Assembly: GCA_018221205.1 (NCBI GenBank)
Contig: JAAOYF010000014.1
Location: forward strand, 1-45,397
Reading direction: 5' to 3'
DNA: 45,397 nt
Origin: Candidatus Woesearchaeota archaeon
GTDB taxonomy: Archaea; Nanobdellota; Nanobdellia; Woesearchaeales; WJIZ01
Made by a program: the position numbers and the translations under genes. Below, one piece after another: positions 17,418-45,397 of this stretch (its first letter is position 1; the number at the start of each line of letters is the position of its first letter). A model generated the notes under the pieces. The model had not been told where the DNA came from. It saw only the letters and a list, made by a program, of their open reading frames with translations, and did no database searches.

Positions 17418-17420
17418 ACA

Positions 17421-17434: not shown

Positions 17435-17453
17435 TAAATAGTCGTTCTTGACA

Positions 17454-17606: not shown

Positions 17607-17607
17607 T

Positions 17608-17744: not shown

Positions 17745-17844
17745 CTTAAGAAAATACTTCATAACAAAGAGAGAAGCCCATTCTGAAATTTTTTACATAT
17801 CCTTTCCGAATCAGTTAGGCACCAGAAGTTGGCGCGCGTTAGAG

Positions 17845-17963
17845 TTACATATTAGTAATAAAAAGCTATATATTAGTACCATTAGACTACAAATTAGTAT
17901 AAAATTATTACATAATAGTAGATAAGGCTTACAAAATAGTATATTAGTAGTTACATAATAGTA
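17845..17963 (+). repeat. Six 13-bp direct repeats (consensus YTACAWAWTAGTA) at 21-22 bp spacing; putative operator or iteron array
   Basis: Starts at 17845, 17866, 17887, 17908, 17929 and 17951; extra TATTAGTA partial sites at 17942 and 17985. Confidence 0.85.
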
Positions 17964-17966
17964 ACC

Positions 17967-17974
17967 TTTATAAA
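17967..17974 (+). promoter_or_regulatory. TATA box TTTATAAA for the HTH/giant-protein operon
   Basis: Canonical archaeal TATA about 26 bp upstream of the TTG start at 18000, implying a leaderless transcript. Confidence 0.7.
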
Positions 17975-17999
17975 TAAATCAGCCTATTAGTAGCCTAAA

Positions 18000-18503
18000 T
18001 TGGATATTCGGGAGAGAACTGAAGTAATCAGCGAAATTTCTAGACTGTTAAGTGGGTTAAGGGAAGATGAAAGAAGGCAAATTCTCGTCAATATCGAGAG
18101 TCTGCAAGAAGATATTCCTATTTCCGCATTCAGATCCCCCATTTCTGGTTTGGAAGTTATTGTCAAGTTTCTCAAGGAAAACGCAAGAAGAACGACAAAA
18201 GAAATCGCAAAGATCCTCAACAGGAAACTCACAACTATCTATACAACCTACAGTGCGACAAAGATCAAACATCCCGAGCCCTTAGACCTCACAGGACGAG
18301 GAATTCTCATTCCCACACAAATTTTCCAAAATCGTCGTTATTCCATTCTTGAGTCGCTTGTTGCCTTCCTGAAGGAGAACAAGCGCTTCTCATTACACGA
18401 AATTGCCGCTCTCCTGAATAAGCAATACAACACCGTCAAGACAGTCTATCGGCGGTATATGATAAAGAGACGTGGTAGAGCTAAGAGTGAAAGAAAAAAA
18501 TAA
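18000..18503 (+). CDS. Tandem helix-turn-helix DNA-binding protein
   Basis: Two internal repeats: IPISAF..SGLEVIVKFLKEN..TKEIAKILNRKLTTIYTTY and IPTQIF..SILESLVAFLKEN..LHEIAALLNKQYNTVKTVY. Confidence 0.85.
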   Translation: MDIRERTEVISEISRLLSGLREDERRQILVNIESLQEDIPISAFRSPISGLEVIVKFLKENARRTTKEIAKILNRKLTTIYTTYSATKIKHPEPLDLTGRGILIPTQIFQNRRYSILESLVAFLKENKRFSLHEIAALLNKQYNTVKTVYRRYMIKRRGRAKSERKK

Positions 18504-21500
18504 GGTGATAGAGTCATTGAAAAGGGCTTTTGCTAATAAGAGCTCTGTCCTAGTTTTAGCTGTACTCTTAGCCACCATGCTCTTCGCTGCTTTGCTTTAT
18601 TTCAACCCGACCATAACAGGATTTGCAGTATTTGACCAGAATGAGATCTCAGAAAAAGTGGAGTGGAATCTGGACAAGACAACACAGAAGACTATCACGC
18701 TGAATGCGACAAAAGAACTGACAGCTATCTCCATATCCGGTGAATTGAACGGTTCTGCTAGGGTCTATCTCCTTTACAATGATGAGAGATATCTTATCTT
18801 CGACGGATCGAACGTTACGTCGCTAGTCTATCCACTGCAAGCGAACGTATCAAATGCATCCATAACAACCATCTTGAAATATCAATCAGGGACAGCATTC
18901 GACCCTGATGATGACGGCATCTCTCTGGATACAGAAGCGATCGACTTCACCGTAAATGAATCTAGGATAAACGAAACCTTAAACGCATCCAATCTCTGCA
19001 CAGTATGGGCAGCAGAACAATCTCTTTGCCATGGCTCATCTTCATGCTGTGATTTCCTCGATCTCAACCAAGATTCAGAGGACTGGGATGATGCATTCTA
19101 TCTCACCTCCAAACAGCCCTCTTACAGTGTTTCAGCCCAGATTTTCTATATAGACTACAGCCTTGATCCTAAAAATCCATATACAGATTTCTATTCAAGC
19201 AGCAAAGCCACCTTGCCTGCATTCTTCTACAAAACCCAAGGCACCTTCACAGCAGAGTGCACGGATACGTGCACATTGTCAGGAATCAAAGGATCCTCTT
19301 TCACCTTGCTTATTGAGATAGATGACGGTTCCATGACCATAGATGGACTGCAGTACTCACTTGATTCAGCAACAAATTCACCGCCTTCCTTCCAGGATCT
19401 CCCAAATCTTACCATAGAGAAGGACTCAACCTATATGTTGAATCTTTCTGACTATGTCTCTGATAGCGAGGGAGATATCTTGACCTATAAGGTGTTCCAG
19501 CTGGATAACATAAGCATAAACTTCTCAGGAAATCTCGCATACCTGACTCCAGATCCAGGCTATAGGGGGCAGGCTTCAACATTTATCATAGCAAATGACT
19601 CACAAGCGATCGGTATTTCCAACATCTTCACCATAATGGTGGAAGAGACTGAAGAGCCATTCAAACCCATAAAGCAAGTAGAGCTTGGAAAGCCTGTTAC
19701 GTGGAGAAAACGCCTCTCAGCAACCAAGAATCTTACCTTCAATCTCACACCGCATGCCTACAATATCTCAGTGAAGCAGATCATCACAGATATCTCTCTG
19801 AAAATTCCAGAAAGATTCATCGCCATAGCAGGAAAATCTCTGAAAAAGTACAATAACGACACCTTCATCAAAGTGAAGCAGAAGCTGCTCAAGGCCCAAC
19901 AGCAAGACATACAGCTGAACATTGAAAATACCACAGGAACAGTCGAGATTGAGTACATGACAGAAGGCCCTGAAGCATTTGAGTCTTCTCTCGACAACGG
20001 AAAACAAGTAATCATCAGTTCAGAGGTCCATTATGAGGATATAAAAGCATTCACCACCATAAGAGAAAGCTCTCTCAGCTCGATCAATCTCTTCCACGTC
20101 ATCAATGGTACCAAGCAAAAGATAGCGTTCAACGCATCCGATACTGATGGAGATTCATTATACGATTACATCGAGTGGACCATTCCCCATTTGAGCAACC
20201 AGACCTATGAGATCATATACATCTCAAAAGCAGAACACTTGGATACAAACAGGACATTCATTGCTGACATAACTGACAAAGTAGAAAGCAGGGATGGTGA
20301 TTGGATAGCTGTCCCAGATAGCAATTACGTAAGGATTACGTTCGAAAGAAAACTCTCAAAAGGCCGCGACATCACGATCTTCGCGAGATCGAATGATTCC
20401 GCAACTGTGGAAGTATTCCTCGAAAACTCCACAGACCAACTCGCTAATTTTGGCTCCATCAATATAGATCAGCGCTACCAGATATTCCTCAATAATCTCA
20501 CTCAAGAAGCAGATACATTCGATTTATTGGTAAGTGGAGGGACAGTTGAGTTTGATTATATCGTTGATCCAGCTGTCGGAGTGAATATAACTCAGCCTGA
20601 CGCAGCTGCTCCAGGAATGGACGTTGTCGTGCAATTCGTCGGAACAAGCTTTGATGCTACTGATACAGTGACCGTAAATACAACAGATATCATTGTTGGA
20701 CCAATAACAGTCACTGATCAAACTGGTGCTGTAGTCTCTTCAGGAGGCCGCGTCTTAACGACAGTCTTCTTTATCAGCGATGTAGCGACAGATCAAGATG
20801 TGCAGGTGAATATCACCGGTTCAACAATCCCGAATCCATTCAAGATTATAACACCAACAACTGGTTCAGGTAATTTCACCGGCGCTTCCGGAACAGTAAC
20901 AATTGGTGATGGCAATAACGGCACGCGGACACAAGGTGGAGCGATAATTCTTGACAGCCTCATTATACCATCGGGTGTGACAGTAATAGTTGATACCTCT
21001 GATCCCGATGCCACCGCAAGCAATGGAAATCAGGGATTCCTTCCTGCAGTGATATTAGTTGACGGCCCCGTAAACATCTCTGGAACGTTGAACATAAGCG
21101 GCCAAGATGGAGCAGTTGGTGCAAGTGCAGGAACCGGCGGAGCAGGCGGAGATGGAGGTCCAGGAGCAGGCGGAGGAGGTTCTGCTGGAGGAGACGGTAC
21201 AGCTGCCATAGGTGCTGGAGGAGATGGATTCTCAGGCGGCGGCGGCGGAGCGAGAGGCTCAGGCGGAGATGGCGGAGATGGCGGAGCAGGCACTGGCGGG
21301 CCAGGAGTGGCTGGCGGAGATGGCGGCGGCGGAGATGGCGGCTATCCAATGTTTGGTGATTCACCCTTGGGAGGCCAAGGTGGTGAGGATCCTGGAGGAA
21401 GTGCAGGAAGTACTGGAGCAGGCGGTTCAGGAGATCCTTTCGGTACCCAAGCTACAGCAAGTGCTGGAGTGAATACTGCTGGAGAAGGAGGTGCAAGCGG

Positions 21501-24500
21501 CGCTGGTGAGAGCGGCGGAGCTTCCGGCGGAGGCGGAGGCGGATTTGGAACAGCAGGTACAGATGGCCAACAGCAATCCGGCGGAGATTTAAACGAACAA
21601 GGCTATGGCGGTTTGGTAGCAGGAAATCAATTCTTAGTTCCACTCTCAGGAGGTTCGGGTGGATCAGGAGGTTCTCCAGATGACGGAGGCTCCGGAGATA
21701 GGATGGGGGGAGGAGGCGCAGGTGGAGGAGGAAGTGTCCTTATCTACTCACCAATTGAAATCAGAATAACCGGTTATATCTTATCAGAAGGTGGAGATGG
21801 TGGAAATGCTGGTCCCGGAGGAACTCAACGTGCCGGCGCAGGAGGAGGAGGTTCAGGCGGTGCAATAACACTTCAATCTCCAATAATCAACAATACGGGC
21901 CTTATCAATACCACAGGAGGAGGAGCAGGAACCTATGGAGGAACTGGCGCTGCAGGTGGAACAGGCGGCTTAGGAAGATTGAGGATTGATGGTGCTCGAG
22001 ACTCAACCTATTTTGGATCTGGATCAACTTATGGCAGCGGTTTCATAGGTCCTGCGTTAACTGAAATTGAAGTAGACCAAATCTCAGGAATTGCGGCTGC
22101 TTCTTCAACCGTTGATATCAGAATAATAAATTCACTTGGCACCGATTATTACAAGACAACAGCAGATAGTGATGGAGACTTTACTATCACTCCCGCATAT
22201 AGAAAGGGGTTGAACTATATCTCAGCCATGCAAAATACAAGCAGCGATACTTATTCAGTTATGGGATCTGCCTCAGTTGGAGTCTTTGATTACACACCAC
22301 CACCGAATATTACCGCCTTGGATTATCCACCAGATGTATCTTTTGTCAATGATGTTCCTCTCGACTATAACTTCACCGTTCATGATGATCAATTCATTGC
22401 AAACTGCAGCCTTTGGACAAATATGAGTGCTACCTGGACACTCAATACAACAATAGTACCAACAACAAATAATTCCCAGACATACAATATTACCCTAATT
22501 GTTCCAGATGGGAAGTTTAAATGGAATGTGCAGTGCTACGATAATGCATCCGGGTCCTCTTGGTTCAGCACAAATTACACCTTTACATTGGATTCAATCA
22601 AGCCAGAGGCGACAATCATATCAATTGATCCAAATCCAGCAAATCAGACATTGGACAATGTGACTGTTGAATGGGCTGCTTCCGATATCCATCTGCACAC
22701 CGCTTACGTAAATGTAACGTATCAAGATGGCTCCTTTATCAGCCAGTACACTGATAATTTCACCTTGACAACGATCAACCTCTCTGATGCAGGGAACTAT
22801 ACGATAACCTTATTTGCGAATGACTCAGCCGGTAACATCAATACGACATCAAGCATATTGACAGTAATTGACAGAATTCCGCCGAATATCACCCTGATCA
22901 ATCCAACGAATAGGACGTATGATATGGATGGCAACATCAATTTCACGTTTAATATAACAGATTTCTCATCTATCTTGAACTGCAGCCTCTTGTTCAGCGG
23001 AATCCCGATATCTTCTAATACAAGTGTCAATAAGAGCATTGCACAGAAATTTAGACAGACGAATATGGCTGATGGAGATTATATCTGGCATATCAGCTGC
23101 ACCGATGCTGAAACCAATCTCGGCCGCTCTTCAAACTGGACAGTGATTGTCGATAAAACCTTACCAACAGTCACGCTCAATTATCCCGAAAACAATAGGT
23201 ATTTCTCCCAATTAACGCTTCAGATGAACCACACGCCGGATGATCCCGGAGTGGCAGATCATCTAGAGGCATGTGAGCTTTGGACTAATTTTTCAAGCAG
23301 CTGGCAGCTCAATCAGACAGAATATTCTCCAAAATCAGACCAGAACAACGGATTTGACTTTGTCACGCTGTCTGAAAATGTCTACAGCTGGAATGTCGTC
23401 TGTAACGACACGGCGAAGAACATCGGCTGGGGCACAGCAAATTACACCTTTACTGTTGATATCACAAACCCAACTGTTGAATTTATCTGGCCTACCCCCA
23501 TAAACAACAGTAATCAGACCTCTTCAAGCCTGACCATAAATGTCAGCCACACCGAGATCCATCCCGAAATCCTGGTGCTTCTCATCAACTCTTCAAGAAA
23601 TGTCACCAAGCCTTACAGCGGATCATTCACCAATATGACCCTCACTGATCTTGACGATGGCATATACACAGTCAGGGTAGGCGTAAATGATTCTGCAAAG
23701 AATATCAATTATACAGAGATAAGACTTATACGTATCGATGCAACACCCCCACAGCTTTATCTGGAATCACCCCTTAATGATACCTGGAAGACGAGCACGA
23801 GTGTGGACTTCAATTACAACACATCGGATAATCTCATTGGTGTAGAGAACTGCACACTCTATATAGCCGGAACTCTGAATGACACCAGTTCATCGATAAC
23901 AGAAGGCATTTCCCAACAGCTCTCCGCAAATATAGGCAACAGCTTCAGTAATGAATGGTATGTCAGCTGTATTGACAGGCTTGGAAACACCAATGACTCA
24001 GAGACAAGGATAATCAAAGTGGATATTACGTTCCCCGGCATGGAGGATGAAGCCATTAACGGTACAGAGTTTGATGTCAATGACCATATCTGCCTCAACG
24101 TCACGGCTTCAGATACCTATTCAGGTGTTGCCCAGGTACTGGCAGAGATTGACTATCCTACATCCGGTTTGACTAATGTTTCCCTATCAAATTCAAGTAC
24201 CTGTAAAGGTGCAGGTGGAGCTGTCTGGGCAGCAGCATTGCAGCTCGTCGAGGACAAGAACTATAATTGGAGCAGGACCTTTGCTGTTGACATAGCAGGG
24301 AATGTGAATATCACCTATCCTCCAACAATCCTTAATTGGTCAGCAAATGCAACAATCTTCCTCAATACCACGATTCTGCAGCCAACGATTAATTTCGTAC
24401 TCAATGAATCATCAAATTCCATTAATGTCAGTTATTTGCAGCAATGTAACGTAAGTTGCCGTGATGATTCTAGCGCATCATGCGAAGGCATCTATCTCTT

Positions 24501-36500: not shown

Positions 36501-39500
36501 TGATTATACTGCACCATTCGCCTGCTCCTGGAACCTTGCAGCACTTCCAGACCACAACCAGTATGAATTATTGGTATATGGCAATGACAGCTTCGGCAAT
36601 ATCGGAGGAAATGACACTCACTATAACATCACTCTTGATAAGACCCCTGCAGCGATCACTCTTTTCAATCCAGACAACAATTCAGTTGATACAGATGGAT
36701 TCATTGCATTTAGCTACAACGTGACCGATAATCTCTCATCACCTTCATCTTGTACATTGGTCCTCAACTCAAAAGCAAATGAGACCAACTCCTCAGTCCT
36801 AGAATCACAGAACAACAGCTTCTCATTGGAATATATGGGAGAGCAGAAGTATAACTGGAGCATCAACTGTACAGACACCCTCGGAAATGTAGGGTCATCA
36901 GTAAATTATAATCTCACCGTGGATATCGATGATGACGCACCCAATATCACCCTGGTGGCACCAGAAAATGAGTCAACCTATACAAGCAAGGTCATCATCT
37001 TCCAGTATGATGTTGTGGATGCTCTATCAGGAATCGCCAATTGCAGCCTCTATTTCAACAATGAATTCAACCAGACGAACAGCTCGACAGTATCAGAAAG
37101 CGTGACCAATACCTTCACCATCACCAATGTCAACGACGGAAACTACTCCTGGTACGTGCAATGTGCTGATTCCAACTGGAAATATCATAGCGTAGGGACT
37201 TCAGATATCTTCAATTTCACCCTGGTCGTGACCACAAACATCAAAGTGAATGTCACCGCGAGCAGCGCGACCTATCAGCAGGGTGAGTTTGCAAACATCA
37301 CGACAAAGACAGTGGATAAGTTCAGTAATGCAATCAACACATCAGTCACTACCAGCTTCATAAATGCTTCTACGACCATACCTTGGTGGAATTCCAGCTT
37401 CTCCTATAGGCGTCAGATGAATATCACTAATCCGAGCACAGCTACTCTGTCTGCCAATTACACTGCCAACTATACCTTAGACACAACAGGATTCGTCTCA
37501 GCCGGTCTGATGCAGACCTCTGGCAAAGACTTGAGGATTGCGTGGTGGAATAACGAGACAAATAGCTGGACAGAGATGGACAGGCTCGTCACCAGCATGA
37601 ACACAGCCTCAACCACCGCCCTGTTCAAGATACGAAGAAATATCTCAGCCAGTTCTTCAGACCTCAGCTATTATCTCTATTACGGAAATAGTTCAGTGGC
37701 AGATGGGCCCACGGATAGGAAAAACATCTACTTCTACTTCGATGGCTTTGATACAGATACACTCAGCAATTATAATACTACAAGAGCATTCAGCTCCTCA
37801 TCAGAGGAATCAGATGATAATCTGACACATGATTCGCGCGGATGGATAAACTATTCTGGTTCAGCAAATTATGGTAAGTCGCTGAGAAAAGAGATTCCAA
37901 ATATCAAAGATGCGATTATAGAAATAGACCAATATGTCGACACCATGCTTGGAGCGCCCACAGCCTCAAGGCTCGAGGTAGCAGCGAAGATGAATGAAGA
38001 CAGCTATTATTACTTCTATGCCTCCACAAATCTCTTCAACAGCCAGCTCGGCAGGTATAATGACGGGTCAGAGACGTTCTCAACGACAAGGAATATCCAG
38101 TATACAGATGTCGACACCTGGTACAGGCTCAAGTTTGTCGTTTATGATAATGGCTCTAACGTCTATCTCAACTCTTATGTGGACGGATCGTTGATGATAG
38201 GCTATAATGATACTAATGTGCAGAAGCTCAACACTACCGGAGGCTTCGGTATAGGCAGCTATCAGCTAGACGGCAGATGGGACAATCTCACAGTGAGCAG
38301 GTACTTTGATACTCCGCCAACGTTCTCTACAAAAGGAGAGGAATACTTGGTCGCAACCCAAACAGAAGAGACTGGCCTGGACGGCATACTCACAATCTTG
38401 CAGGATACTATTACGTTCGAGACTGGCAGCCACACAGCAATTTCACTAGCTTCAAATCCAAACTATCTCAATGGTTTCAATTACACCACTATCACTATAG
38501 TGGCAGATACGGACTATCCGCAAGTGAGCCTTGTCTCTCCAGAGAATAATTCCTGGCTCAACAATCAGAACGTATCATTCGTCTATGTCCCAACCGATAA
38601 TACTCAGAAGTTTGCAAACTGCTCCTTGATCCTGAACAGTATCTACAATGAGACAAACTCTACACCACTGACCCATAATGCCCAGAATAATTTCACGTTG
38701 AATGACATGCCACAAGGCTATCACAACTGGAGCATAACGTGCTTTGATCTTGCGCAACAGCAGAATACCTCAGTCACGCAGTATTTCTACATCGATACTA
38801 CAGATCCTACGGTAACTCCCCAATATCCATCAGATGATTCTTATCTATCGCTAGTAGATATCAATTTCAATTTCACAGTGAGCGATAATCTTGATGCAGA
38901 GCTTCTGTGCAACCTGACATTAGACAGCAAGCAGAATAACTCTCAATATATCGTTGCCCAGAATGGATCGTATGCAAACTACACGATACATAACATCATC
39001 AATGGCAACCATACCTGGAGCGTGACTTGTTCCGATAACGCCACAAATGTACAGACAACCTCAACACTTTCTTTAGTTGTCGACACCATAGAGCCAGGCA
39101 TCACCTTGCAGGCTCCAGCACCAGCATTCGCGACCGGAGACGACTTCATCAGCTTCAACTGGACAGCAATCGATAATCTTGACACATCCTTGTTCTGTAA
39201 CCTCACTGTAGATGGCAAGGTGAATGCATCCACTGTTGTCTCTCCAAACGGCACCATGGTGAACCACACCACCCATAATCTAGGATTCGGCACCCATTAT
39301 TGGAATGTCACCTGCGAAGACACTTCCCTTAATACAAATACATCATTGACAAGAAACTTCACTATTTCAGGACAGCCGCCTTACTGGAGCAATAACCAGA
39401 ATTTCACTCCAGCTACTTATTCACCAACACAACAAAGCTCCTTTAACATCACCTGGCAGGATGACATCTCCATAAATTCAGCATGGTTCGAGAGCAATTA

Positions 39501-42500
39501 CTCAGGATCAAGGACTAATCTCAGCATGACTGATCTCGCTGCTGACAAATATAATTTCTCAGGCATATTGCCTGCAGGAACCCATTACTGGAGATCGCAC
39601 GCTAATGACTCTTCAGGATTATGGAATCAGACTAATGAATGGACCTTCACCATAGCAAAAGTGTCTACATCATGTTCATTGGATGTAAGCGCCTCTCCAG
39701 TAAGCTATAGCGTACAGACCCAGGCAAATTGTTCCTGTACAAATCTTGATCTCTCAGCGTCATTATTCAGGAATGGATCTGATGTCACATCGCAGAATGG
39801 CACTTTTACGACATTGGCAGCAGGAAATTGGTATTACACCTGTAACGTAACGTCCACCCAGAACTATACGACAGACTCAATCTCAAGATGGATAAATGTG
39901 ACACAGGCAGCAGGAACACTCAACCTCTTCATAAACAGCAGCACAGCAGACTATAGGTATAATGTAAGCTTCGACACCAATATCACCTGCCTACTAGCAA
40001 CACCTTCAACAGGAAACCTTACTATCTATGAAGACGGTGTCCAGATACAGTCAGCAATCGCCGACAGAGCAAACCTGACAAGGACATATACAGCACCAGC
40101 CCAGCACAACATTACTTGTATACTCGAGGATCATCTGAATTATACTGCGTCAGACTTCAGCTGGCTCAACGCCACAGACGAAGACAGCCTCTCCCTCTCC
40201 CAGAACTATCCACCACAGAACTACTACAATGACTCATCAGATCCTTATCAGATAACATTCGACTGTTCTGCCACCGATAACTATAATCTGCAGAATATCA
40301 CTCTTTATATGACGGGTCCATTGAATCAAAGCTTCGCTCCAAACCAATCTGCCTCCCTCACAGGCACATCCGATAGCGCAACATGGCCAGTGACATTAGG
40401 AAACGGCAATTATACGTGGAACTGCCTGGTCTATGATGAATATAATAATACATTATGGGGTGTGAACCGGACTGTTCTCATAAATTACACCATTGACATC
40501 AACATCTCCGATCTGGCAGGAAACAGGCTCGACTATACGCTCGAGAATCTTGGCCAGACAGACGGCCTTTACGATTTAAGGATAACATTCACATCAGAAG
40601 ATCCCGATGCAATGCTTATCAGAGGCTATAATGACACTGCAGAGGGTTACATACTCTTTGAATCTCCAACAAACGAGACATGGGGACAGGATAGTTATGC
40701 AATTTCAATAGAAGGAGCAGTCTTGAACAACTTGACCCTTACTTTAGTTGCGAATGGTTCCTATGTCTATAAGTGTGACAACTGGAATATGAGCAATCTG
40801 ACCTGTAAGGATGAGAATGTCTGGGACACGATTGCCCTGCCGACACTGAATCAAAAATATAACATAACCATAAATTCAACGGATCCAGGTTTCGTAGAGC
40901 TCAATATACCAGAATCTGATGTCTTAGATGACAGCATAGCAGGAGAATCTTCTCCATCAACAGAATGGGGAGGAGCATCAGTGACTGCTATCCAGAATTA
41001 CACAAATAACGCAGCCCATTCCATGTATAAATTCAATATCTCAAGTATACCCAGCGATGCAAATATCCAGAGCGCCACACTTTATCTTACCTGTAATCAG
41101 GAGAACCTCGAGTCAGGAGATAGCATCAGCTTCGGCGCCCATAGGGTCTATGGCAACTTCGGCTGGATTGAGGGAACAGGTTCTGGAATCGGTGGCGCAG
41201 CCTGCACAGGAGAAGAGTTCTGTTGGAACAATAAACCTACCCAAGGAACAGAATACAACGCAACAGCAGAAGATTCAGATACCTTCGGCAATGGATGCCC
41301 AGGAACACAAGTAGCATTGAACGTTTTCCATATGGTAAAGGCAGCCTACCTCAATAGCGAGGATAACATCTCAATCTATATCGTGCCGAACGGAACGACA
41401 GCTGGTACCGTAACAAATGATTGGATAAGGATCGCTTCTAAGGAAAACAACAATCCTGCAAGAAGACCAGTCCTTAATATTACTTATACGACTGTGCCTA
41501 AAGTCATCAATCTCACACCCAAAGCAGGAACGGTCTTCGATACGAATGTAGGAGTCAATATCTCAGCTAATGTGACAGACAACCCAGCTGCCGCGAACAT
41601 CTCATGGGTACTGGTCAACATCACCTTGCCAGATGCATCATTAGAGCAGATAAGGCTCAATAATACACAAGGAGATGACATCTACTATGGCAATTATTCG
41701 AACACTTCATTGATAGGGACCTATACAGTGAGATTCATAGCCAACAACACTGATGATGTAGAGAATGCGTCAGAGACAACATGGTTCTACATCCGGGATA
41801 GCATATCGCCGGTAGTGAGCCTCCAAAGCCCCATACCTAATTATTATAATGATACTAGCGATCCATCCGATGTCTTCTTTAACTGTTCGGTGACTGACAA
41901 TTATAACTTGCAGAATCTCACATTATACTTGACCGATTCATTGAATCAGAGCTTTGTTCCAAACAGCTCTGCCAGCATTAATGGCACATTTAATTATTCT
42001 ACCTGGACAGTCTCGCTAGGAAACGGAAACTACACCTGGAACTGCCTGGCATTTGACGAATTCAACAACACCGACTGGGGCATAAACCGGACAATATTGA
42101 TCAATTATTCTGACAAGCCGCCATACTGGAGCAATAATCAGAATTACACAGTAAGTACCTATTCCTCAACTGAAAGAAGCAGTTTCAATATCACCTGGGA
42201 AGATGACTATGGGGTAAGCTCAGTCTGGTTCGAATCCAACTACACAGGGACGGCAGAGAATTACAGTATGAATGCATTAGGCAGCAGCAAGTATAATTAT
42301 TCAGCAGTGTTCCCAGCCGGAACATTCTATTGGAGATCCTATGCAAATGACACATTGAATCAATGGAATCAGACAAGCCAATGGTTGTTTACAGTAGCGA
42401 GAGCTGCAAGCAGTGTAAATCTCTCACTCAATTACACAGATGCAGATATAACAATAGAAGCAGGCTCCACCATAAACATCTCAGCAGATCTTTTAATTCC

Positions 42501-45396
42501 AAGCTATGGCTGGATAGAGCTCTACCAGAATGCATCTCTCGTAAACTCAGGCTACAATTTCATCTCTAACTTGACCACGTTCAACTCCCCAGCCTACTAC
42601 AACTACACTGCAATCTATAACACAACAGAAAACTACTCAACAAGCCAAGAGACCCATCACTTAACAGTCCAGGACACCACAACTCCAACAATCTCAATCA
42701 TTGCTCCATTAGACGACGAATTACTAGGCTGGACAATCTTATTGAGAGCAAACGTAACCGATCTTAACCTCCATACTGTAAGATACCAAGTCCATAATGG
42801 CACAAGTAACGATAAGATAATAGATTCAGGAATCATGAACAACTTCCAAGGAGATTTATTCAACGGCACGTTATACACAAACGCAACCTGGCCTTATCCA
42901 ACTGCTTTCAGGAACTCAACTAATCTGACATTCATAATCTTCGCCAATGACACTTCTGGAAACTTAATTAACCTCTCAACCAATTTCACCTTGGATAACA
43001 CTCGCCCAAGCATACAATACCTCACTCCACCACCAGGAGGAATCTTCTACAACGCAGACTTCGATATGAACATCTTCCTAGCTAACACATTACTAAATTA
43101 TAGCTACGTCAACATCTCCCAAATATCAACCATCCAATTCAATGACACCAATTTATCAGTCTCAACCTTTACTTGGGCAGATCACGTCGATATTGACTCA
43201 TACAATGAAGGCAATTACACCGTAACCACTTTAGCAAGAGACTACGTCCAGAACAATCGCACTAGAGAGACCTGGTTCTACGTAGACAAGTCAGCTCCAA
43301 ATGCATCTAACTGGATTACTCCAACCTCAGCAAACAACACCTTCACCAACGTACAGATTCAATCCTTCAACTTCACCTGTTCAGATTCATTCCTCGATGA
43401 TGTCTGGCTAGACTTCGAAGGAACCCTAAACAGCACTCCATTCAACAACAATGACGCTTACTGGTGGACCTTCAATCTAGGAGAAGGAACATACGATTAT
43501 ACAGCATACTGCAACGACTCAGCAAGCAACATAAACCAGACTCAGGCATGGAGAATAAACATAGACTTGACCTCTCCAACCTGGTCAAACAATGACACAG
43601 ACCCACAATCTCCAGTAACTTATGCAAGTGGAGCCAGCTACCAATTCAACATCACCTGGAATGACAATTACGGAGTCAATTCCACAATATTCGAGCATAA
43701 TTTCACAGGAACTCTAACCAACTACTCAATCGCAGGCTCAAATGGTAACGAGTACTACTACGACTACTCTGACTTGGCAGCAGGTTACTACATCTGGAGA
43801 AGTTATGCTAATGACACCGCTGGAAACTACAACGTAACTGATCAATTCACCTACACTGTAACCAAAGCAGCATCTTTAGTAAACTTAACATTAAATGACA
43901 CTGATGATAATATAAGTGTAGAAGTAGGAACATTAGTCAACCTCTCAGGATATCTCATAACTCCAAGCTTCGGATCTATAGAATTATACTACAATGACAC
44001 CCTTATAAACTCTGGAAACAACTACATCAGCAACCTCACCCTATTCACAGCCAACGGAACATTCAACATAACTGTCTTGTATCCAGCAACAGAGAACTAC
44101 TCAACAACCTTAGAGACCCATTACATAGACGTCATAGACTCCACAGCACCAACTATCACCTTAAATGCACCCATAGACGGCTACAATACCACACAGACAG
44201 CAATAAACTTCTCCTGGATACCCTATGACAATTACGATACTTCATTATCCTGTAATGTAACCATAGACAGCGTAGTGCAAAGCTCAAATATCATCTCACC
44301 AAACGGATCAATACAGAACTCAACAGTAACCAGCCTCACAGAAGGCCTCCATTCCTGGAACGTAACTTGCTCAGACTACTCCCAGAACATCAATACTTCA
44401 GAAACACGTGTATTCAGGGTTGACACAATAGCCCCAACCTGGTCAAACAACGATACCGATCCACAATCACCAGTAGTATACAGCCAAGGAGCCAGTTACC
44501 AGTTCAACATCACCTGGCAGGATGCAGGAGTTGGCGTAGAGACAGTCTTATTCGAGCACAACTTCACCAGAACCTTCACCAACTACTCAATAAGCGGAAG
44601 CAACAGCAATGAATACTATTATGATTACTCCGACTTAGCTGCAGGCTACTACGTCTGGAGAAGTTACGCCAATGACACTTTAGGAAACGAGAATATCTCT
44701 GACCAGTTCACTTACACAGTAACAAGAGCGACAAGCGACATAAATCTCTCATTGAACTACACTGATGCAGACCTGACAATCGCAGCCTACTCAACAATCA
44801 ATATCTCAGGAGAATTATTGACCCCAAGCTTCGGCTACATCGAATTATGGCAGAATGATACCTTAATCAACTCCGGACCGAATTACATAAGCAACCTTTC
44901 AACATTCAATGAGATAGGTTATTTCAACATAACAGCCATCTATAACGCAACAGAGAACTACTCAACAAGCAGAGAGACCCATTTCCTCACAGTAACTGAT
45001 GCAACACCACCAAGGGTTGACTTAAACGCACCGATAGACGGCTACAACACCACTCAAACAGCAGTAAACTTCAGCTGGATACCATACGATAACTTCGACA
45101 CCAGTCTGCTCTGTAATCTCACGGTGGACGGAGTGTTCAACAAGACAGATATCATCTCTCCAAATGGATCAATCCAGAATTCAACAGTCTTAGGCTTCTA
45201 TGACGGCATCCATTCCTGGAACGTCACCTGTACTGATGATTACAACAATGTAAATACTTCACTAACAAGATCATTCAGGATCGACACCATAGCTCCAACC
45301 TGGTCAAATAATGATACAGACCCACAATCACCTGTAACATACGCACAAGGAGCCAACTATCAGTTCAACATAACTTGGCAGGATGCAGGAGTAGGC
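18487..45396 (+). CDS. Giant multidomain cell-surface glycoprotein/adhesin, at least 8,970 aa, 3' end outside the window
   Basis: Frame +1 from GTG 18487 (alternative GTG 18472): MKEKNKVIESLKRAFANKSSVLVLAVLLATMLFAALLYFNPTITGFAVF... Every segment I translated is open, up to ...QFNITWQDAGVG at the window end. The ORF track lists no terminated frame +1 ORF here, as expected for one unterminated frame. Confidence 0.93.
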   Translation, partial: MKEKNKVIESLKRAFANKSSVLVLAVLLATMLFAALLYFNPTITGFAVFDQNEISEKVEWNLDKTTQKTITLNATKELTAISISGELNGSARVYLLYNDERYLIFDGSNVTSLVYPLQANVSNASITTILKYQSGTAFDPDDDGISLDTEAIDFTVNESRINETLNASNLCTVWAAEQSLCHGSSSCCDFLDLNQDSEDWDDAFYLTSKQPSYSVSAQIFYIDYSLDPKNPYTDFYSSSKATLPAFFYKTQGTFTAECTDTCTLSGIKGSSFTLLIEIDDGSMTIDGLQYSLDSATNSPPSFQDLPNLTIEKDSTYMLNLSDYVSDSEGDILTYKVFQLDNISINFSGNLAYLTPDPGYRGQASTFIIANDSQAIGISNIFTIMVEETEEPFKPIKQVELGKPVTWRKRLSATKNLTFNLTPHAYNISVKQIITDISLKIPERFIAIAGKSLKKYNNDTFIKVKQKLLKAQQQDIQLNIENTTGTVEIEYMTEGPEAFESSLDNGKQVIISSEVHYEDIKAFTTIRESSLSSINLFHVINGTKQKIAFNASDTDGDSLYDYIEWTIPHLSNQTYEIIYISKAEHLDTNRTFIADITDKVESRDGDWIAVPDSNYVRITFERKLSKGRDITIFARSNDSATVEVFLENSTDQLANFGSINIDQRYQIFLNNLTQEADTFDLLVSGGTVEFDYIVDPAVGVNITQPDAAAPGMDVVVQFVGTSFDATDTVTVNTTDIIVGPITVTDQTGAVVSSGGRVLTTVFFISDVATDQDVQVNITGSTIPNPFKIITPTTGSGNFTGASGTVTIGDGNNGTRTQGGAIILDSLIIPSGVTVIVDTSDPDATASNGNQGFLPAVILVDGPVNISGTLNISGQDGAVGASAGTGGAGGDGGPGAGGGGSAGGDGTAAIGAGGDGFSGGGGGARGSGGDGGDGGAGTGGPGVAGGDGGGGDGGYPMFGDSPLGGQGGEDPGGSAGSTGAGGSGDPFGTQATASAGVNTAGEGGASGAGESGGASGGGGGGFGTAGTDGQQQSGGDLNEQGYGGLVAGNQFLVPLSGGSGGSGGSPDDGGSGDRMGGGGAGGGGSVLIYSPIEIRITGYILSEGGDGGNAGPGGTQRAGAGGGGSGGAITLQSPIINNTGLINTTGGGAGTYGGTGAAGGTGGLGRLRIDGARDSTYFGSGSTYGSGFIGPALTEIEVDQISGIAAASSTVDIRIINSLGTDYYKTTADSDGDFTITPAYRKGLNYISAMQNTSSDTYSVMGSASVGVFDYTPPPNITALDYPPDVSFVNDVPLDYNFTVHDDQFIANCSLWTNMSATWTLNTTIVPTTNNSQTYNITLIVPDGKFKWNVQCYDNASGSSWFSTNYTFTLDSIKPEATIISIDPNPANQTLDNVTVEWAASDIHLHTAYVNVTYQDGSFISQYTDNFTLTTINLSDAGNYTITLFANDSAGNINTTSSILTVIDRIPPNITLINPTNRTYDMDGNINFTFNITDFSSILNCSLLFSGIPISSNTSVNKSIAQKFRQTNMADGDYIWHISCTDAETNLGRSSNWTVIVDKTLPTVTLNYPENNRYFSQLTLQMNHTPDDPGVADHLEACELWTNFSSSWQLNQTEYSPKSDQNNGFDFVTLSENVYSWNVVCNDTAKNIGWGTANYTFTVDITNPTVEFIWPTPINNSNQTSSSLTINVSHTEIHPEILVLLINSSRNVTKPYSGSFTNMTLTDLDDGIYTVRVGVNDSAKNINYTEIRLIRIDATPPQLYLESPLNDTWKTSTSVDFNYNTSDNLIGVENCTLYIAGTLNDTSSSITEGISQQLSANIGNSFSNEWYVSCIDRLGNTNDSETRIIKVDITFPGMEDEAINGTEFDVNDHICLNVTASDTYSGVAQVLAEIDYPTSGLTNVSLSNSSTCKGAGGAVWAAALQLVEDKNYNWSRTFAVDIAGNVNITYPPTILNWSANATIFLNTTILQPTINFVLNESSNSINVSYLQQCNVSCRDDSSASCEGIYLFTDYFEGSWNTITTTTQTFISSLDNYSCGTLAAEESCQQTFNVTIGRESGGSTYRMRCRTSSTNAPSDYSVEFNLTVNDYPVAKMLYPTNNEWLHGIEIINVSTSTDDREITQYIFEVDNNTDFDSPTLLCDTLNTGAQGTASTGNLTGTYGQSGGNYTNTTQNDTSYWFVGNSGSFSINAYAVATYNLSKTGVAEEDLTALSFSMVYCHSGSDYPGVECAGTAATGSVDGTQQVEAFNYSNSQWTDIGDLRTDDAGNEIYDEFSVPGNLSDFINDTSDEIRIRYEMDYINAFAEDRSFLVIDHAILDISYDLGLDSCSFDTTNQTQCDEESQTCYLRLNVTDSDGLRNSTYITISIDNIGPTTTLLRPINFTNITASTYLMNVSVQDVGSGADTITYLYRENNTASWNSLCTRSTTPYNCTWDLSSLEEGRNYQLRAYANDSESNLGGNDTAMNITLDRLGPIITLNAPGNNTWNLDDIIFNYTVNDIHSDIASCSLLINSITNQTNTTITEGADLKFTINGIADGYYTWRVLCKDMLDNVNNSEIRILKVDNSGPTSTVINPPDFTNISGSYTVNATVTDAGSGVNTTLFYYRQNLSASWMLICSDETSPYECNWDTSSLPEAVSYEVRAYANDSLGYIGDNDTNTNISVDRTSPVINLLAPGNNSQDVDGIVDFNFSVTDALLGVPNCSLIINGSVNRTAFGIQESSAENITLDNLVNGFYHWNVSCSDDAGNTNTSDTRAVTIAPDADPPNVSLNSPTNSSTISNQDVALTYTVTDALSEISNCSLFFLETFNQTNSTAVTEGASNVFNVYNLDNGNYSWRVECTDTAVSPNTGASGTYNFTVNNLPSMRINLTADQLQYEVGERASLNTSTSDEFGNPINTTVTTDIILGNTSTPWWNTSWKRRKPVFINDTTGSYRADVLVNVNVSGLGGYITDCTNEIRVVGNNSLSFSDVPVNIVGGDNSTYCDITFRGNVSASAVDENTYFVYYNNSGAADPGHGLMNITENVTFDTFEADFGNWTDQGGTCLYVRNQDVTPSATTGFGNTGGQGFDHTLGTSSGWYIYVEASGNVCQGGDTEADVVSNSFTAGSASTTLSFWFQMHGNAVGTLHVDVNDGGWNNDLWTQVNQNQSSPLDPWAFAQVDLSAYSGQLQVRFRYDGVTGWQADQLLDDINITVGNRISNGLASYTGETEEFIQENTSVTGDDGYWIWSWNTFGQSFGNYSAVSLSTSQDYDDGSDYTLFEIIPDTSNPRISLNYPYNNSWNNTNSLTFHYTPTDNAHHFANCSLYFNSILNKTNTTSISDAQQNSFSLSGIVVGKHNWSISCFDISGNQNSSETRFFFIDQTPPSINLDWPIDGYNTTTSMLDLNFTAFDNMDTGLTCNITLDNVMLSSIGAANGTLSGANAEDLTNSLHRWNVTCQDNATNVNTSLTRTFIVDSIAPTIELNKPSNDSWDNSGLIEFNFTATDTYLHRCELWGNFSASWLKNRTVYGPPSGSETNFSKVTIPDGIYYWGVNCSDYAGNLNWSNANFTIKIDTTIPQIGFASNNPINNSNQSSTSVFINATHTEVNSHTIIFYWNGSQNETRAYSSLYTNITLPNIVDGPYTYYVWVNDSATNENQTETRTITIDTIAPDLSLVSPQNNSWINNASNPALFIYTADDDLLIVENCSLYVDSIWNQTNATISEGINQNFTLQLYSANYTWNVQCYDTVGNLNTSETRKAKVDLSFPTIANTNTNNTNTTVSDYICINATIADTFSQVLQAYAHIVDPDSVTQTVYLVDNSTTTCDGSNGDGIYSATYQLTKAGTYNWTRMYAKDFAGNLNLTFVGIEMNSTSFISMNSTLYYPTGTFEINESTGSFAMNCSATCDPTSETCTNVRLRASYNESGSSYITTLTTDLTNDINGYVCGDLSPGATCSNVFTIDASDTSGQENWRVWCTGNSDNAGSIDSEDEVNLTINDRPYAMWDYPIDLEWLSGTENLTALSSYDNDGSLGLYTFELDNNTAFSTPTTICDSTDGNCTFDTTSQSQCTQHTFDCYLKLTVTDDNYATNSTILNIGIDNIGPTTTILRPLNGTNISTSVYEMNASIVDTGSGVNTTIFEQRPDILSGWQVACTDTDGTSPFNCSWNLASLDDGKSYQVRMRANDSEGNYGSYITVYNITVDRYGPAIDLNSPANNTWSLNDIIFRYTPDDAFSYITSCSLYLNAQQNKSNSSITDGLSQNVSVWDMADGDYNWSIQCTDSLGNQNSSLTRKIKIDNTGPTASLDQPQNFTNISGAYTVNATVMDAGIGINATSFYYRQNFSASWSLLCSDTTAPYGCNWNTLGSPERNSYEVRAFANDSLGNRGANYTSYNITIDNTPPSLALILPDNNSQDIDGAVNFTFTVSDALIGISQCILIINSSTNATYNSPAEDATLGFYVTTLRNNSHQWSVNCTDTAGNTQASDFRNITIGPDNDAPLITLLTPANESTYTSSDIAFNYVVNDLLSGIANCSLYFDSQFNQTNSSAITEDETNTFSINNVPNGNYSWQVECTDTAAPPNSALSVIHNFTLVETQALHVNVSLDQTVYEQGEIAIINSSATDIFGNPIEANVTTDIILGKTEVGWWNSSWLLRRRFNLTTPDESNRTAEIVKVNISGLGGSIESCSNELRIIRGTVVKTEISFTSEAGDDSTYCYVRFITNITYGTPEIYYAYYNNSNAPAPGYSTVATQYVANGNMNGASDWTYTETEASDVGEYSTAQSNSPSRSYHIYNDGTSGTIGLYGEIYQDIELPCVGCNLTISAYNRLESAGSTVAAFVAHIIIDTFYLSSIDFPGSAGSPIDWTIRSNTSYRPQSSTERLYLRMTTNMDFAGWGQRDSYWDDVNITINKPIDTSMVMSAEENWISTNSNETGDGGYWIWYWSTYTQEVSNYSAVSYVTNPNYNPGSNSSFFEILPDTSNPAVSLISPLNLSWNKTGNVTFKYIPTDNAHRFANCSLILNDAFNKTNSSAITEAVQNSLSLNNMAEGAYNWSITCFDLEDNQNTSVTQFFYVDKTKPAISLEYPIDSFNTSLTTINFNFTVTDYFYPDNMNCELYYDSKINNSASLLVPNGSYSNYTVNNMVGGSHTWRVTCQDNATNLNTSLTRSFIIDFIAPSTTLNAPENNSWDADGSVQMQYTPVDTYLKSCDLWGNFSGSWAFNQTDSNPSSGSQNSFNAIALTDGYYIWAVNCTDHSLNYNWSKNNFSINIDTTAPTIDFAGGTASDDSYYNRDYIYVNVTASDSNEANITFRLYNTTSIVNITTLPAGYRDINFTGLNTNEQYTYNVTILDKARNNASTSTRTLTLDSINPIVSLDAPADSHLTNSTIITFNYTSFNTNADSCTIYHNASGWAANDTQSVTSGVQKSVSKTFFDGDFIWNVFCNDSAGNAAWNATNFTFIIDTTAPSIDFAGNNPVNNSNQSSSQVFINTTHTEVHPDTIRLYWNGVQNQTKTYAATYTNFTLIPIADGSYTYYVWINDTAWNKNQTETRKITVDTTPPTLSLNAPENDTWSNELRTLFNFTTNDALIGVQACSLVIDSKLNQTNSSISEGVSQYFNHVLGSSYGYNWSVNCTDTLGNENISETRIIKIDKSLPTITGENINETSLEVNFQICLNVSVTDTYSDLASVIATVEFPSGEQNVSLSNTTGCGNVGGSIWTDELSLPEQGDYNWTRTYATDNAGNTQLNYLSVQRNWSTFANNFLNSTITRPIANFELNESTVAAVSYYNQSCEASCEVSSTLDCENVYIFADYYDGSWTKITTATTKFYADVDNGSCGTVTKGDTCSQQFNVSVGTNAGGTIYPIRCRAASTNSATSYSTETLEVNATINDFPVARFSHPTNSTWHYGVEILNASTSTDDQGISLYSFELDNNQAFSSPTLLCSTADANCTFNTSAQTECTEEVMGCYLRLNVTDSDGLKNWTIITFGIDNTGPTAVLDRPRNFTNTSSNAYTVNASLSDAGNGSISAAIFQYRENFQETWTTACIDYTAPFACSWNLAALPDHNQYELLVYGNDSFGNIGGNDTHYNITLDKTPAAITLFNPDNNSVDTDGFIAFSYNVTDNLSSPSSCTLVLNSKANETNSSVLESQNNSFSLEYMGEQKYNWSINCTDTLGNVGSSVNYNLTVDIDDDAPNITLVAPENESTYTSKVIIFQYDVVDALSGIANCSLYFNNEFNQTNSSTVSESVTNTFTITNVNDGNYSWYVQCADSNWKYHSVGTSDIFNFTLVVTTNIKVNVTASSATYQQGEFANITTKTVDKFSNAINTSVTTSFINASTTIPWWNSSFSYRRQMNITNPSTATLSANYTANYTLDTTGFVSAGLMQTSGKDLRIAWWNNETNSWTEMDRLVTSMNTASTTALFKIRRNISASSSDLSYYLYYGNSSVADGPTDRKNIYFYFDGFDTDTLSNYNTTRAFSSSSEESDDNLTHDSRGWINYSGSANYGKSLRKEIPNIKDAIIEIDQYVDTMLGAPTASRLEVAAKMNEDSYYYFYASTNLFNSQLGRYNDGSETFSTTRNIQYTDVDTWYRLKFVVYDNGSNVYLNSYVDGSLMIGYNDTNVQKLNTTGGFGIGSYQLDGRWDNLTVSRYFDTPPTFSTKGEEYLVATQTEETGLDGILTILQDTITFETGSHTAISLASNPNYLNGFNYTTITIVADTDYPQVSLVSPENNSWLNNQNVSFVYVPTDNTQKFANCSLILNSIYNETNSTPLTHNAQNNFTLNDMPQGYHNWSITCFDLAQQQNTSVTQYFYIDTTDPTVTPQYPSDDSYLSLVDINFNFTVSDNLDAELLCNLTLDSKQNNSQYIVAQNGSYANYTIHNIINGNHTWSVTCSDNATNVQTTSTLSLVVDTIEPGITLQAPAPAFATGDDFISFNWTAIDNLDTSLFCNLTVDGKVNASTVVSPNGTMVNHTTHNLGFGTHYWNVTCEDTSLNTNTSLTRNFTISGQPPYWSNNQNFTPATYSPTQQSSFNITWQDDISINSAWFESNYSGSRTNLSMTDLAADKYNFSGILPAGTHYWRSHANDSSGLWNQTNEWTFTIAKVSTSCSLDVSASPVSYSVQTQANCSCTNLDLSASLFRNGSDVTSQNGTFTTLAAGNWYYTCNVTSTQNYTTDSISRWINVTQAAGTLNLFINSSTADYRYNVSFDTNITCLLATPSTGNLTIYEDGVQIQSAIADRANLTRTYTAPAQHNITCILEDHLNYTASDFSWLNATDEDSLSLSQNYPPQNYYNDSSDPYQITFDCSATDNYNLQNITLYMTGPLNQSFAPNQSASLTGTSDSATWPVTLGNGNYTWNCLVYDEYNNTLWGVNRTVLINYTIDINISDLAGNRLDYTLENLGQTDGLYDLRITFTSEDPDAMLIRGYNDTAEGYILFESPTNETWGQDSYAISIEGAVLNNLTLTLVANGSYVYKCDNWNMSNLTCKDENVWDTIALPTLNQKYNITINSTDPGFVELNIPESDVLDDSIAGESSPSTEWGGASVTAIQNYTNNAAHSMYKFNISSIPSDANIQSATLYLTCNQENLESGDSISFGAHRVYGNFGWIEGTGSGIGGAACTGEEFCWNNKPTQGTEYNATAEDSDTFGNGCPGTQVALNVFHMVKAAYLNSEDNISIYIVPNGTTAGTVTNDWIRIASKENNNPARRPVLNITYTTVPKVINLTPKAGTVFDTNVGVNISANVTDNPAAANISWVLVNITLPDASLEQIRLNNTQGDDIYYGNYSNTSLIGTYTVRFIANNTDDVENASETTWFYIRDSISPVVSLQSPIPNYYNDTSDPSDVFFNCSVTDNYNLQNLTLYLTDSLNQSFVPNSSASINGTFNYSTWTVSLGNGNYTWNCLAFDEFNNTDWGINRTILINYSDKPPYWSNNQNYTVSTYSSTERSSFNITWEDDYGVSSVWFESNYTGTAENYSMNALGSSKYNYSAVFPAGTFYWRSYANDTLNQWNQTSQWLFTVARAASSVNLSLNYTDADITIEAGSTINISADLLIPSYGWIELYQNASLVNSGYNFISNLTTFNSPAYYNYTAIYNTTENYSTSQETHHLTVQDTTTPTISIIAPLDDELLGWTILLRANVTDLNLHTVRYQVHNGTSNDKIIDSGIMNNFQGDLFNGTLYTNATWPYPTAFRNSTNLTFIIFANDTSGNLINLSTNFTLDNTRPSIQYLTPPPGGIFYNADFDMNIFLANTLLNYSYVNISQISTIQFNDTNLSVSTFTWADHVDIDSYNEGNYTVTTLARDYVQNNRTRETWFYVDKSAPNASNWITPTSANNTFTNVQIQSFNFTCSDSFLDDVWLDFEGTLNSTPFNNNDAYWWTFNLGEGTYDYTAYCNDSASNINQTQAWRINIDLTSPTWSNNDTDPQSPVTYASGASYQFNITWNDNYGVNSTIFEHNFTGTLTNYSIAGSNGNEYYYDYSDLAAGYYIWRSYANDTAGNYNVTDQFTYTVTKAASLVNLTLNDTDDNISVEVGTLVNLSGYLITPSFGSIELYYNDTLINSGNNYISNLTLFTANGTFNITVLYPATENYSTTLETHYIDVIDSTAPTITLNAPIDGYNTTQTAINFSWIPYDNYDTSLSCNVTIDSVVQSSNIISPNGSIQNSTVTSLTEGLHSWNVTCSDYSQNINTSETRVFRVDTIAPTWSNNDTDPQSPVVYSQGASYQFNITWQDAGVGVETVLFEHNFTRTFTNYSISGSNSNEYYYDYSDLAAGYYVWRSYANDTLGNENISDQFTYTVTRATSDINLSLNYTDADLTIAAYSTINISGELLTPSFGYIELWQNDTLINSGPNYISNLSTFNEIGYFNITAIYNATENYSTSRETHFLTVTDATPPRVDLNAPIDGYNTTQTAVNFSWIPYDNFDTSLLCNLTVDGVFNKTDIISPNGSIQNSTVLGFYDGIHSWNVTCTDDYNNVNTSLTRSFRIDTIAPTWSNNDTDPQSPVTYAQGANYQFNITWQDAGVG
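21100..21990 (+). other. Glycine-rich domain of the giant protein
   Basis: GTGGAGGDGGPGAGGGG, GGSGGSGG, GGGGSGGAITL and GGLGRLRIDG repeats; high GC. Confidence 0.85.
23160..39090 (+). repeat. Three degenerate super-repeats within the giant gene (approx. 23160-28830, 28830-33900, 33900-39090)
   Basis: Ordered recurring landmarks: C(E/D)LW(T/G)NFS; NNSNQ..HTE; DNN.(D/A)F..PT..C (24853, 30505, 36154); WWN.S (27199, 32317, 37384); PTDN...FANCSL. Confidence 0.85.
27535..28035 (+). other. MAM-like domain within the giant protein
   Basis: TFEADFGNW...DHTLGTSSGWYIYVEAS...LSFWFQMHGNAVGTLHV...W..AQVDL...LLDDINIT matches the MAM signature. Confidence 0.8.
40910..41490 (+). other. DNRLRE/CBM96-like domain within the giant protein
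   Basis: DDS..ESSPSTEWGG...MYKFNISSIPSDANIQSATLYL...WNNKP...ASKENNNPARRPVLNITY. Confidence 0.7.
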
Positions 45397-45397
45397 G
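43576..45397 (+). repeat. ~860-bp tandem repeats (about 286 aa) in the giant gene, continuing off the window
   Basis: CCAACCTGGTCAAA (PTWSNNDTDPQSPV) at 43576, 44434 and 45295; periods 858 and 861 bp. Confidence 0.9.

Follow-up and report, generated by a model that had tools for sequence, protein, structure and literature searches.

Does the array of short repeated motifs that precedes a small helix-turn-helix (HTH) gene and a giant surface-protein gene in this Candidatus Woesearchaeota genome form a regulatory unit with them, and in which direction would the small protein drive it? The window, meaning the whole stretch of DNA analysed, comprises the 45,397 nucleotides of one contig (C52) from a 1.28-Mb genome that is 94.8% complete. 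A Pfam scan of the ORFs identified housekeeping genes in the left 17 kb (SerRS, Cdc6-like, RtcB/archease and CoA synthesis); the CoA biosynthesis cluster of this small-genome lineage, at 351-3812, is of the archaeal type (PPS, GHMP kinase, DFP, PanB). The features of the control region are listed below, with the position of each box core given relative to the first T of the TATA box.

17522..17607, + strand: tRNA-Ser(GCT), a neighbour of the unit and not a component
17843..17857, + strand: operator box 1, core at -121
17864..17878, + strand: operator box 2, core at -100
17885..17899, + strand: operator box 3, core at -79
17906..17920, + strand: operator box 4, core at -58
17927..17941, + strand: operator box 5, core at -37
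17949..17963, + strand: operator box 6, core at -15, its final four bases on BRE positions -7 to -4
17960..17966, + strand: predicted BRE, with a purine at -6 and A at -3
17967..17974, + strand: TATA box, TTTATAAA
17978..17992, + strand: degenerate box 3' of the TATA box, right half intact and left half lost

The six 15-bp boxes have core starts at 17846, 17867, 17888, 17909, 17930 and 17952, giving spacings of 21, 21, 21, 21 and 22 bp, and are separated by AT-rich gaps of 6 bp. The pattern TA[CT]AWWWTAGTA was found six times, against a maximum of two in 20,000 dinucleotide shuffles of either 17608-18000 or the AT-rich segment 17836-17995, indicating that the phased array proposed in the initial annotation is real, as is the TATA box at 17967. 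With regard to the predicted BRE, 72% of 298 TATA promoters of the same genome have a purine at -6 and 70% have A at -3. The degenerate downstream box has a matrix score of 3.9, compared to 18.6-21.5 for the good boxes, and no sigma-70-like -35/-10 site was found near the array. Scanning the 1.28-Mb genome with a matrix of the six boxes, we identified seven matches, six of them within the array, in agreement with the earlier proposal of a dedicated regulator; a wider regulon in this genome was rejected, the single match outside the array lying on contig C33.

Among the array units, the 12-bp cores are 87% alike and the 9-bp spacers 30% (first five units), indicating that the array is not a fresh tandem duplication. 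This bears on the suggestion, also made in the initial annotation, that the position after a tRNA marks a variable island. In a fuller form of this reading, a mobile or variable element would have been inserted at tRNA-Ser, and the array would be a by-product of insertion or of tandem duplication. The unit does begin 235 bp past the tRNA, and copies of the 5' 17 nt of the tRNA and of 12 nt from its 3' end lie at 17454 and at approximately 17727, respectively, as a tRNA-adjacent insertion would leave. However, these duplications border small repeated palindromic elements present on other contigs, the spacers have diverged while the cores were kept, just 2 of 164 homologous loci have a tRNA within 1 kb upstream, a scan of 18 flanking ORFs revealed neither an integrase nor a transposase, and the GC3 of the giant gene is typical of the genome (0.48 vs. 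0.457 +/- 0.077). The island reading was thus not upheld, an insertion of this kind being highly improbable, and the proximity of the tRNA is incidental. The palindromic intergenic elements that flank the tRNA, at 17334-17417 and 17621-17727, have near-identical copies on contigs C1 and C9, and on C50, C15 and C2. The tRNA was the sole match in an Rfam scan of 17200-18600, and the sequencing reads (one run, probably DNA, contigs only) gave no joints or indels over 10000-29900.

The array and TATA box are followed by the regulator gene, which overlaps the giant surface-protein ORF. The features of the latter are as follows.

18487..45397, + strand: giant surface-protein ORF, 8,970 aa or longer, running off the contig end
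18547..18603, + strand: N-terminal membrane anchor or signal helix, residues 21-39 of the giant, its sole N-terminal hydrophobic helix
21019..22041, + strand: glycine-rich stretch of approximately 340 aa, seen in the sequence, no Pfam match
27613..28035, + strand: MAM domain, E 6e-15
37522..37764, + strand: DUF2341-like domain, E 1e-4, slightly below the curated cut-off
40942..41130, + strand: partial CBM96-like carbohydrate-binding module, E 7e-7

The giant ORF starts at GTG 18487 (8,970 aa, 17-bp overlap) or at GTG 18472 (8,975 aa, 32-bp overlap). The stop-free frame to the contig end and the 17-bp overlap had been correctly described; the size of more than 27 kb previously given to the gene is an extrapolation, because the window holds just 26.9 kb of it, and a search for its continuation on other contigs gave no 25-nt end overlap. 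In a Pfam scan done in 17 pieces, of which six were without a match, we identified repeated Ig-like domains (Big_13, Big_7 and Big_3_3), and the protein contains 543 N-glycosylation sequons. Membrane targeting together with long Ig-like repeats provides good support for a predicted surface stalk, and the MAM and partial CBM96 matches suggest a binding role for the giant, whose C-terminus lies beyond the contig; we infer that it acts in adhesion. Following the N-terminal helix (18610-18630) we noted an I-T-G-F/Y-A-type motif, a loose pattern that occurs in 90 of 175 partner proteins and in 184 of 991 genes of the genome itself.

We investigated the distribution of this arrangement among relatives. 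Among the 401 genomes of the order, 201 carry a regulator homologue (a tally that includes up to nine unpublished genomes), as do 136 of the 251 in a phylum sample (up to two unpublished genomes); the remaining counts given here are independent of these unpublished genomes. The range of the family beyond the phylum was judged from an atlas cluster search. The homologues with names belong to Ca. Woesearchaeota and Nanoarchaeia/Nanobdellota, and five of eight named loci in one listing are titled 'uncultured Methanosarcinales archaeon'. The fetched loci (195, with 195 distinct ORFs) are the better-scoring matches and not a random sample; 192 remained after removing three from unpublished genomes, 181 of them with at least 400 nt downstream. 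A downstream same-strand gene starts between -35 and +5 of the stop in 162 of these 181 homologues (321 of 1,048 of the genome's own genes), the next gene has a hydrophobic N-terminal segment in 160 (252 of 1,048), and both features coincide in 153 (113 of 1,048), indicating that array, HTH gene and overlapping surface gene behave as one conserved unit, as first proposed. Each of the six paralogues that the genome itself holds overlaps a membrane-targeted gene, which in one case encodes 9,167 aa.

The homologues were thus linked to arrays and to downstream membrane-targeted genes, as the initial annotation had anticipated, but the expected giant size did not hold. Among 121 partners of resolved size, 61 have fewer than 500 aa, 46 have at least 1,000 and 7 at least 4,000 (59 more are unresolved), which rules out giant size as a defining trait. 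The reverse link is weaker: the N-terminal module of the giant was found at 29 loci, and an HTH gene directly precedes it in 7 of the 16 with enough upstream DNA, and in three more with short upstream flanks. Three paralogous cassettes stand in a row at L001-L003 (G000:C28:7639-59306), with partners of 9,167, 2,085 and 384 aa (then 2,998 aa), and two giants there share the N-terminal module of 550-700 aa with the giant of the window. Beside the usual two-HTH members, we observed single-HTH members (frames of 73-99 aa; L029, L030, L032, L033 and L195) and four-HTH members (L082, L135 and L228).

The box motif is likewise shared. Of 178 upstream regions, 124 contain the strict form TACAWNNTA and 90 contain two or more copies of it, compared to 18% and 2% of shuffles, while 54 lack it; the mean per region is 1.72 vs. 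0.24 on the opposite strand. At least two such boxes precede 6 of 1,067 genes in the genome itself, three of them HTH paralogues; the three non-HTH genes, with two loose boxes each, had neither the right flank of the window regulator nor a cluster. Over 259 distances taken from 90 loci, the boxes are phased at 10.5-10.6 bp, with a mean cosine of 0.64 vs. a random maximum of 0.16. At L227:14295-14598, eight boxes stand 41-45 bp apart upstream of a stand-alone HTH gene; the giant partner of this gene has an HTH pair of its own, in fused form. At L236:1917-2110 (G000:C24), three boxes with the common core and other flanks lie between divergent genes without an HTH neighbour, perhaps as the target of another paralogue. 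No regulator homologue was found on viral contigs with a single-protein query, and a viral origin was rejected, since the two-box pattern gave two viral loci, neither with an HTH gene within 1.5 kb. The cassette is real, conserved and widespread in Woesearchaeota/Nanoarchaeia, and we found no description of it in the literature searched, most subscription papers and bioRxiv supplements lying outside its reach. A terminator-like site was looked for on the + strand of 17633-18800 and none was found. In the window, the array, the tandem-HTH gene and the overlapping surface-protein gene quite probably form a two-gene operon with one transcript.

The regulator itself comprises the following features.

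18000..18503, + strand: tandem-HTH regulator, 167 aa, TTG start; N-terminal two-helix part and two sigma-4-like HTH repeats
18222..18251, + strand: HTH1 recognition helix, residues 75-84, covarying with the downstream half-box
18420..18449, + strand: HTH2 recognition helix, residues 141-150, covarying with the upstream half-box

An AlphaFold model of the protein (pLDDT 90) contains two N-terminal helices followed by two strand-helix-HTH repeats, which are 43% identical to each other. Both repeats adopt the fold of the sigma-4 HTH (Z 8-10), the second aligning with sigma region 4 (1rp3_A) over 53 residues at Z 9.9 and rmsd 1.2, and a two-copy complex prediction gave a score of 0.27. HTH_23 was the only Pfam family above cut-off, matches to Sigma70_r4_2 being weak, nothing in NCBIfam matches the protein, and its nearest atlas clusters are mostly annotated as hypothetical. 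A Foldseek search of the PDB with the model returned zero matches at E 0.001, and a sequence search of the PDB returned a sigma-H as its sole match (E 0.002). The regulator is therefore a member of a family without a name in the curated databases searched (Pfam and NCBIfam). Its TTG start lies 33 nt after the first T of the TATA box. In the window clade, defined as 14 ORFs with the helix types of the window, 11 have a TATA match, and in all 11 a TTG or GTG start follows it by 31-39 nt, which strengthens the earlier proposal that translation is leaderless; for the window regulator such a start is likely.

The box is a pseudo-palindrome of the form NNN-TA-N5-TA-NNN, and the boxes of single-HTH members (L029, L030 and L033) are near-perfect palindromes. 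In a set of 79 loci with at least two boxes each and distinct helix pairs, the main associations link HTH1 to the right flank (maximum z 10.5) and HTH2 to the left (maximum z 11.6); a weaker link of HTH1 to the left half (maximum z 6) is of the kind that kinship would produce. We additionally compared the two domains, using non-canonical helices, by predicting the reverse-complemented right half from neighbouring HTH2 helices, and vice versa. Rules from HTH2 and the left half predict HTH1 and the right half (1.35 vs. 1.07 shuffled), the reverse prediction gives 1.30 vs. 1.03 (0 of 2,000 shuffles in either direction), and swapped pairings carry no signal (1.00 vs. 1.08 and 1.09 vs. 1.17). Such a prediction across domains would not easily be explained by kinship, and it bears out the earlier expectation that the recognition helices covary with the upstream repeats.

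Individual rules point the same way to differing degrees. Trp at helix position 7 and C/G at the corresponding position of the half-site agree in 71 of 84 loci, whichever domain is considered, compared to 40 and 44 of 84 in swapped pairings, with the association counts including kin, that is, non-independent loci. With identical helices excluded, all three positions of the right half of the window box are predicted correctly, and the prediction of the left half is loose. A tree-based covariation test recovered just one or two supported independent pairs, too few for significance. In a hold-out of 12 stand-alone loci with mostly symmetric boxes, the cognate pairing was better than the swapped in four, tied in five and worse in three, and the rule that Asn at helix position 5 specifies A was broken by one of the three held-out loci that have Asn. 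These covariation data lead us to infer that, within the pseudo-palindrome, HTH2 reads the half lying upstream and HTH1 the one lying downstream, the halves differing because each HTH would read its own. The different helices noted in the initial annotation do match different halves, although the site is pseudo-palindromic and palindrome-derived, and not simply non-palindromic as had been supposed. The window regulator very probably binds its own array.

We found the HTH pair at the C-terminus of 12 database proteins of 1,046-1,945 aa, and of 16 giants in the fetched loci. Wherever such a fused form had a scored promoter box, the cognate pairing outperformed the swapped one (12 of 12), and the boxes have A next to the core, as Asn at helix position 5 predicts; the fused set is mostly one family, and the core pattern was relaxed after these sequences were seen. 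The fused module thus appears to read the promoter of its own gene, which would fit feedback on the finished product. The fused giants (L226, L227, L256-L270; P0009-P0020) sometimes carry four HTHs, and each is followed by a separate 300-aa protein paralogous to the last domain of the giant. Two of them, L265 and L267, have upstream repeats with an altered core (CACACCCTA), no obvious TATA box, and a ribosome-binding site before an ATG. A transmembrane helix before the fused HTH was considered and found no support: the hydrophobic stretch is short, and the model places its first half in the last Ig strand and continues as low-confidence coil.

The placement of the boxes bears on the direction of control. 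Across 100 loci, boxes cluster at -15, -26, -36, -47, -57, -68, -78 and +17 relative to the TATA box. In the available text of two reports, archaeal repressor sites lie downstream of the BRE/TATA and activator sites upstream (PMC4158304, PMC5937170), and the position +13 to +20, occupied by a box in 46 of 70 classifiable promoters, corresponds to a repressor position as described in PMC4158304. This box co-occurs in 1 of 13 promoters with a -15 box vs. 9 of 21 with a -26 box, mostly promoters of one clade. Among the 11 promoters of the window clade, the array ends at -15 in nine and at -16 and -12 in the remaining two, and a downstream box is present in one. The -15 box of this clade sits over BRE-like sequence and covers positions -7 to -4. 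We read it as a blocking position that replaces +17 in the window clade, hence we favour, with moderate confidence, net repression by the regulator.

As a whole explanation, it is fairly probable that the 167-aa protein is a dedicated autorepressor of its own operon, binding the six helically phased boxes of its promoter and so limiting transcription of both genes. The single polypeptide would act as a fused pseudo-dimer on each 15-bp box, the upstream half occupied by HTH2 and the downstream one by HTH1, and copies of the regulator would align on one face of the DNA, every two turns. TFB contacts the BRE through the major groove, and a protein bound at -15 may exclude it from there. Through the weak TTG start, probably leaderless, and the overlap of stop and start, the level of the regulator would be coupled to the output of the operon, such that the cell could cap synthesis of a very costly giant protein, and divergent helices would largely prevent cross-talk with the genome's five paralogous cassettes.

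Against repression, all six good boxes lie upstream of the TATA box, the usual activator side, and the downstream box has decayed. These observations favour an alternative in which the regulator recruits TFB or TBP from the -15 box, producing positive feedback and a bistable or Ss-LrpB-like biphasic switch, with the giant displayed by part of the population. The rarity of downstream boxes in the clade (1 of 11) is in line with this, as are the available descriptions of archaeal activators that bind upstream of the BRE/TATA (PMC4158304), of TFB-RF1, which activates the operon encoding it through a palindrome immediately preceding the BRE (PMC5937170), and of Ss-LrpB, an activator at low occupancy and a repressor when occupancy is high (PMC6497280). 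Box 6, however, overlaps the predicted BRE rather than abutting it, this BRE fits the genome consensus and is not weak, a box lies over the start region in most promoters of the family (46 of 70), including those of fused forms, where it touches the ATG, and the natural Ss-LrpB circuit was not bistable in modelling, according to the part of PMC6497280 available. We consider activation rather unlikely, yet a serious alternative.

The fixed distances from the TATA box (-15, -26, -36 and +17) point to contact or competition with the initiation complex, and argue against a role that is mainly architectural, as do the diversified specificities of paralogues, which suit independent gene control. An architectural protein would bend or wrap the AT-rich DNA, silence cryptic TATA boxes, an activity of Cbp1 on CRISPR arrays, or tether the locus to a membrane secretion site, with little switching. 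Two-turn phasing would give it a regular filament, the fused forms couple the HTH module to a membrane protein, and the model has a weak Foldseek match to the tandem-HTH repeat binder Cbp2 (E 0.08); even so, we regard such a role as improbable, and autorepression remains our preferred reading.

To our knowledge, gene regulation in DPANN archaea is almost unstudied. Here a regulator family, its operator, its promoter geometry and a testable and unusually legible amino-acid-to-base code were obtained from sequence alone, and all of these lend themselves to tests with short DNA and a protein of 167 aa, for which the organism need not be cultured. The box motif flags tightly controlled surface genes of presumed symbionts, and thereby candidate host-contact proteins, and small, modular, orthogonal archaeal DNA binders could serve synthetic biology. 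More tentatively, the surface repertoire of Nanoarchaeia might be run by programmable two-headed regulators that share a three-base code per head, forming orthogonal circuits rewired half by half, one per surface gene. Each regulator would be made in step with its surface protein, whether overlapped or C-terminally fused, and would act as a counter or an on/off memory for the host-attachment proteins of these unculturable cells.

Finally, we compared the cassette to known systems. In the available text on Ss-LrpB of Sulfolobus solfataricus (PMC6497280), several regularly spaced palindromic boxes likewise occupy the regulator's own control region, and cooperative filling with possible mixed feedback is a further likeness, for the window unit as a proposal. 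In contrast, Ss-LrpB has the Lrp fold, a ligand-binding domain and one homodimer per box, whereas the window regulator has two HTHs in one chain and no ligand domain, and the 21-bp period and the coupled surface-protein gene also set the unit apart. On membership of the Lrp/AsnC family, regularly spaced boxes in the own control region are present, HTH_AsnC (PF13404) scores 21.4 bits, below its cut-off of 27, and the RAM domain is absent, the C-terminal half being the second HTH repeat.

TFB-RF1 (PF1088) and regulators of the TrmB/MDR1/Phr type, as described in the parts of PMC5937170 and PMC4158304 available, are similarly encoded in an operon with their target and bind a palindrome with a 5-bp centre at a fixed distance from the BRE/TATA, the position deciding the sign. 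They belong to other protein families and use a single site, whereas the window family has a phased array of 2-8 boxes, with the proximal box over a consensus BRE. The feature typical of autorepressors is found in the overlap of box 6 with BRE positions -7 to -4.

Cbp1/Cbp2 (PMC3597662; PDB 2lvs) are, in the available description, likewise archaeal tandem-HTH proteins that bind arrayed repeats and affect transcription; their targets are CRISPR repeats, in contrast to the 15-bp operators of the window, which have 6-bp AT-rich gaps, no spacers or cas genes, and halves read inverted. The Foldseek match of Cbp2 (2lvs) to the regulator is weak (E 0.08, TM 0.24) and not among the 50 VIA matches listed, and no sequence match between Cbp1/Cbp2 and the regulator was found in the PDB.

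With regard to the sigma-70/ECF factors, the region-4 HTH fold is present and a region-2 Pfam match is absent, and the homologues score at most 23.5 bits against NCBIfam sigma models with cut-offs of 43-323. Sigma-70/ECF factors are tied to -35/-10 promoters, in contrast to the window boxes, which are keyed to a TATA/BRE promoter. Pairs of a paralogue and a membrane protein resemble sigma/anti-sigma cassettes. A 'sigma-70' family of DPANN/Woesearchaeota, fam00359, has a median length of 280 aa and PF04545 in the available part of Castelle et al. (PMC8204110), and the supplement file describing it contains neither PF08281 nor PF13384; judged by this description (length and Pfam), fam00359 is probably a different family from the window regulator. 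The cassette is a conceptual variant of archaeal autoregulation, lying outside the Lrp and sigma families on the features tested, and with a target other than that of the Cbp proteins.
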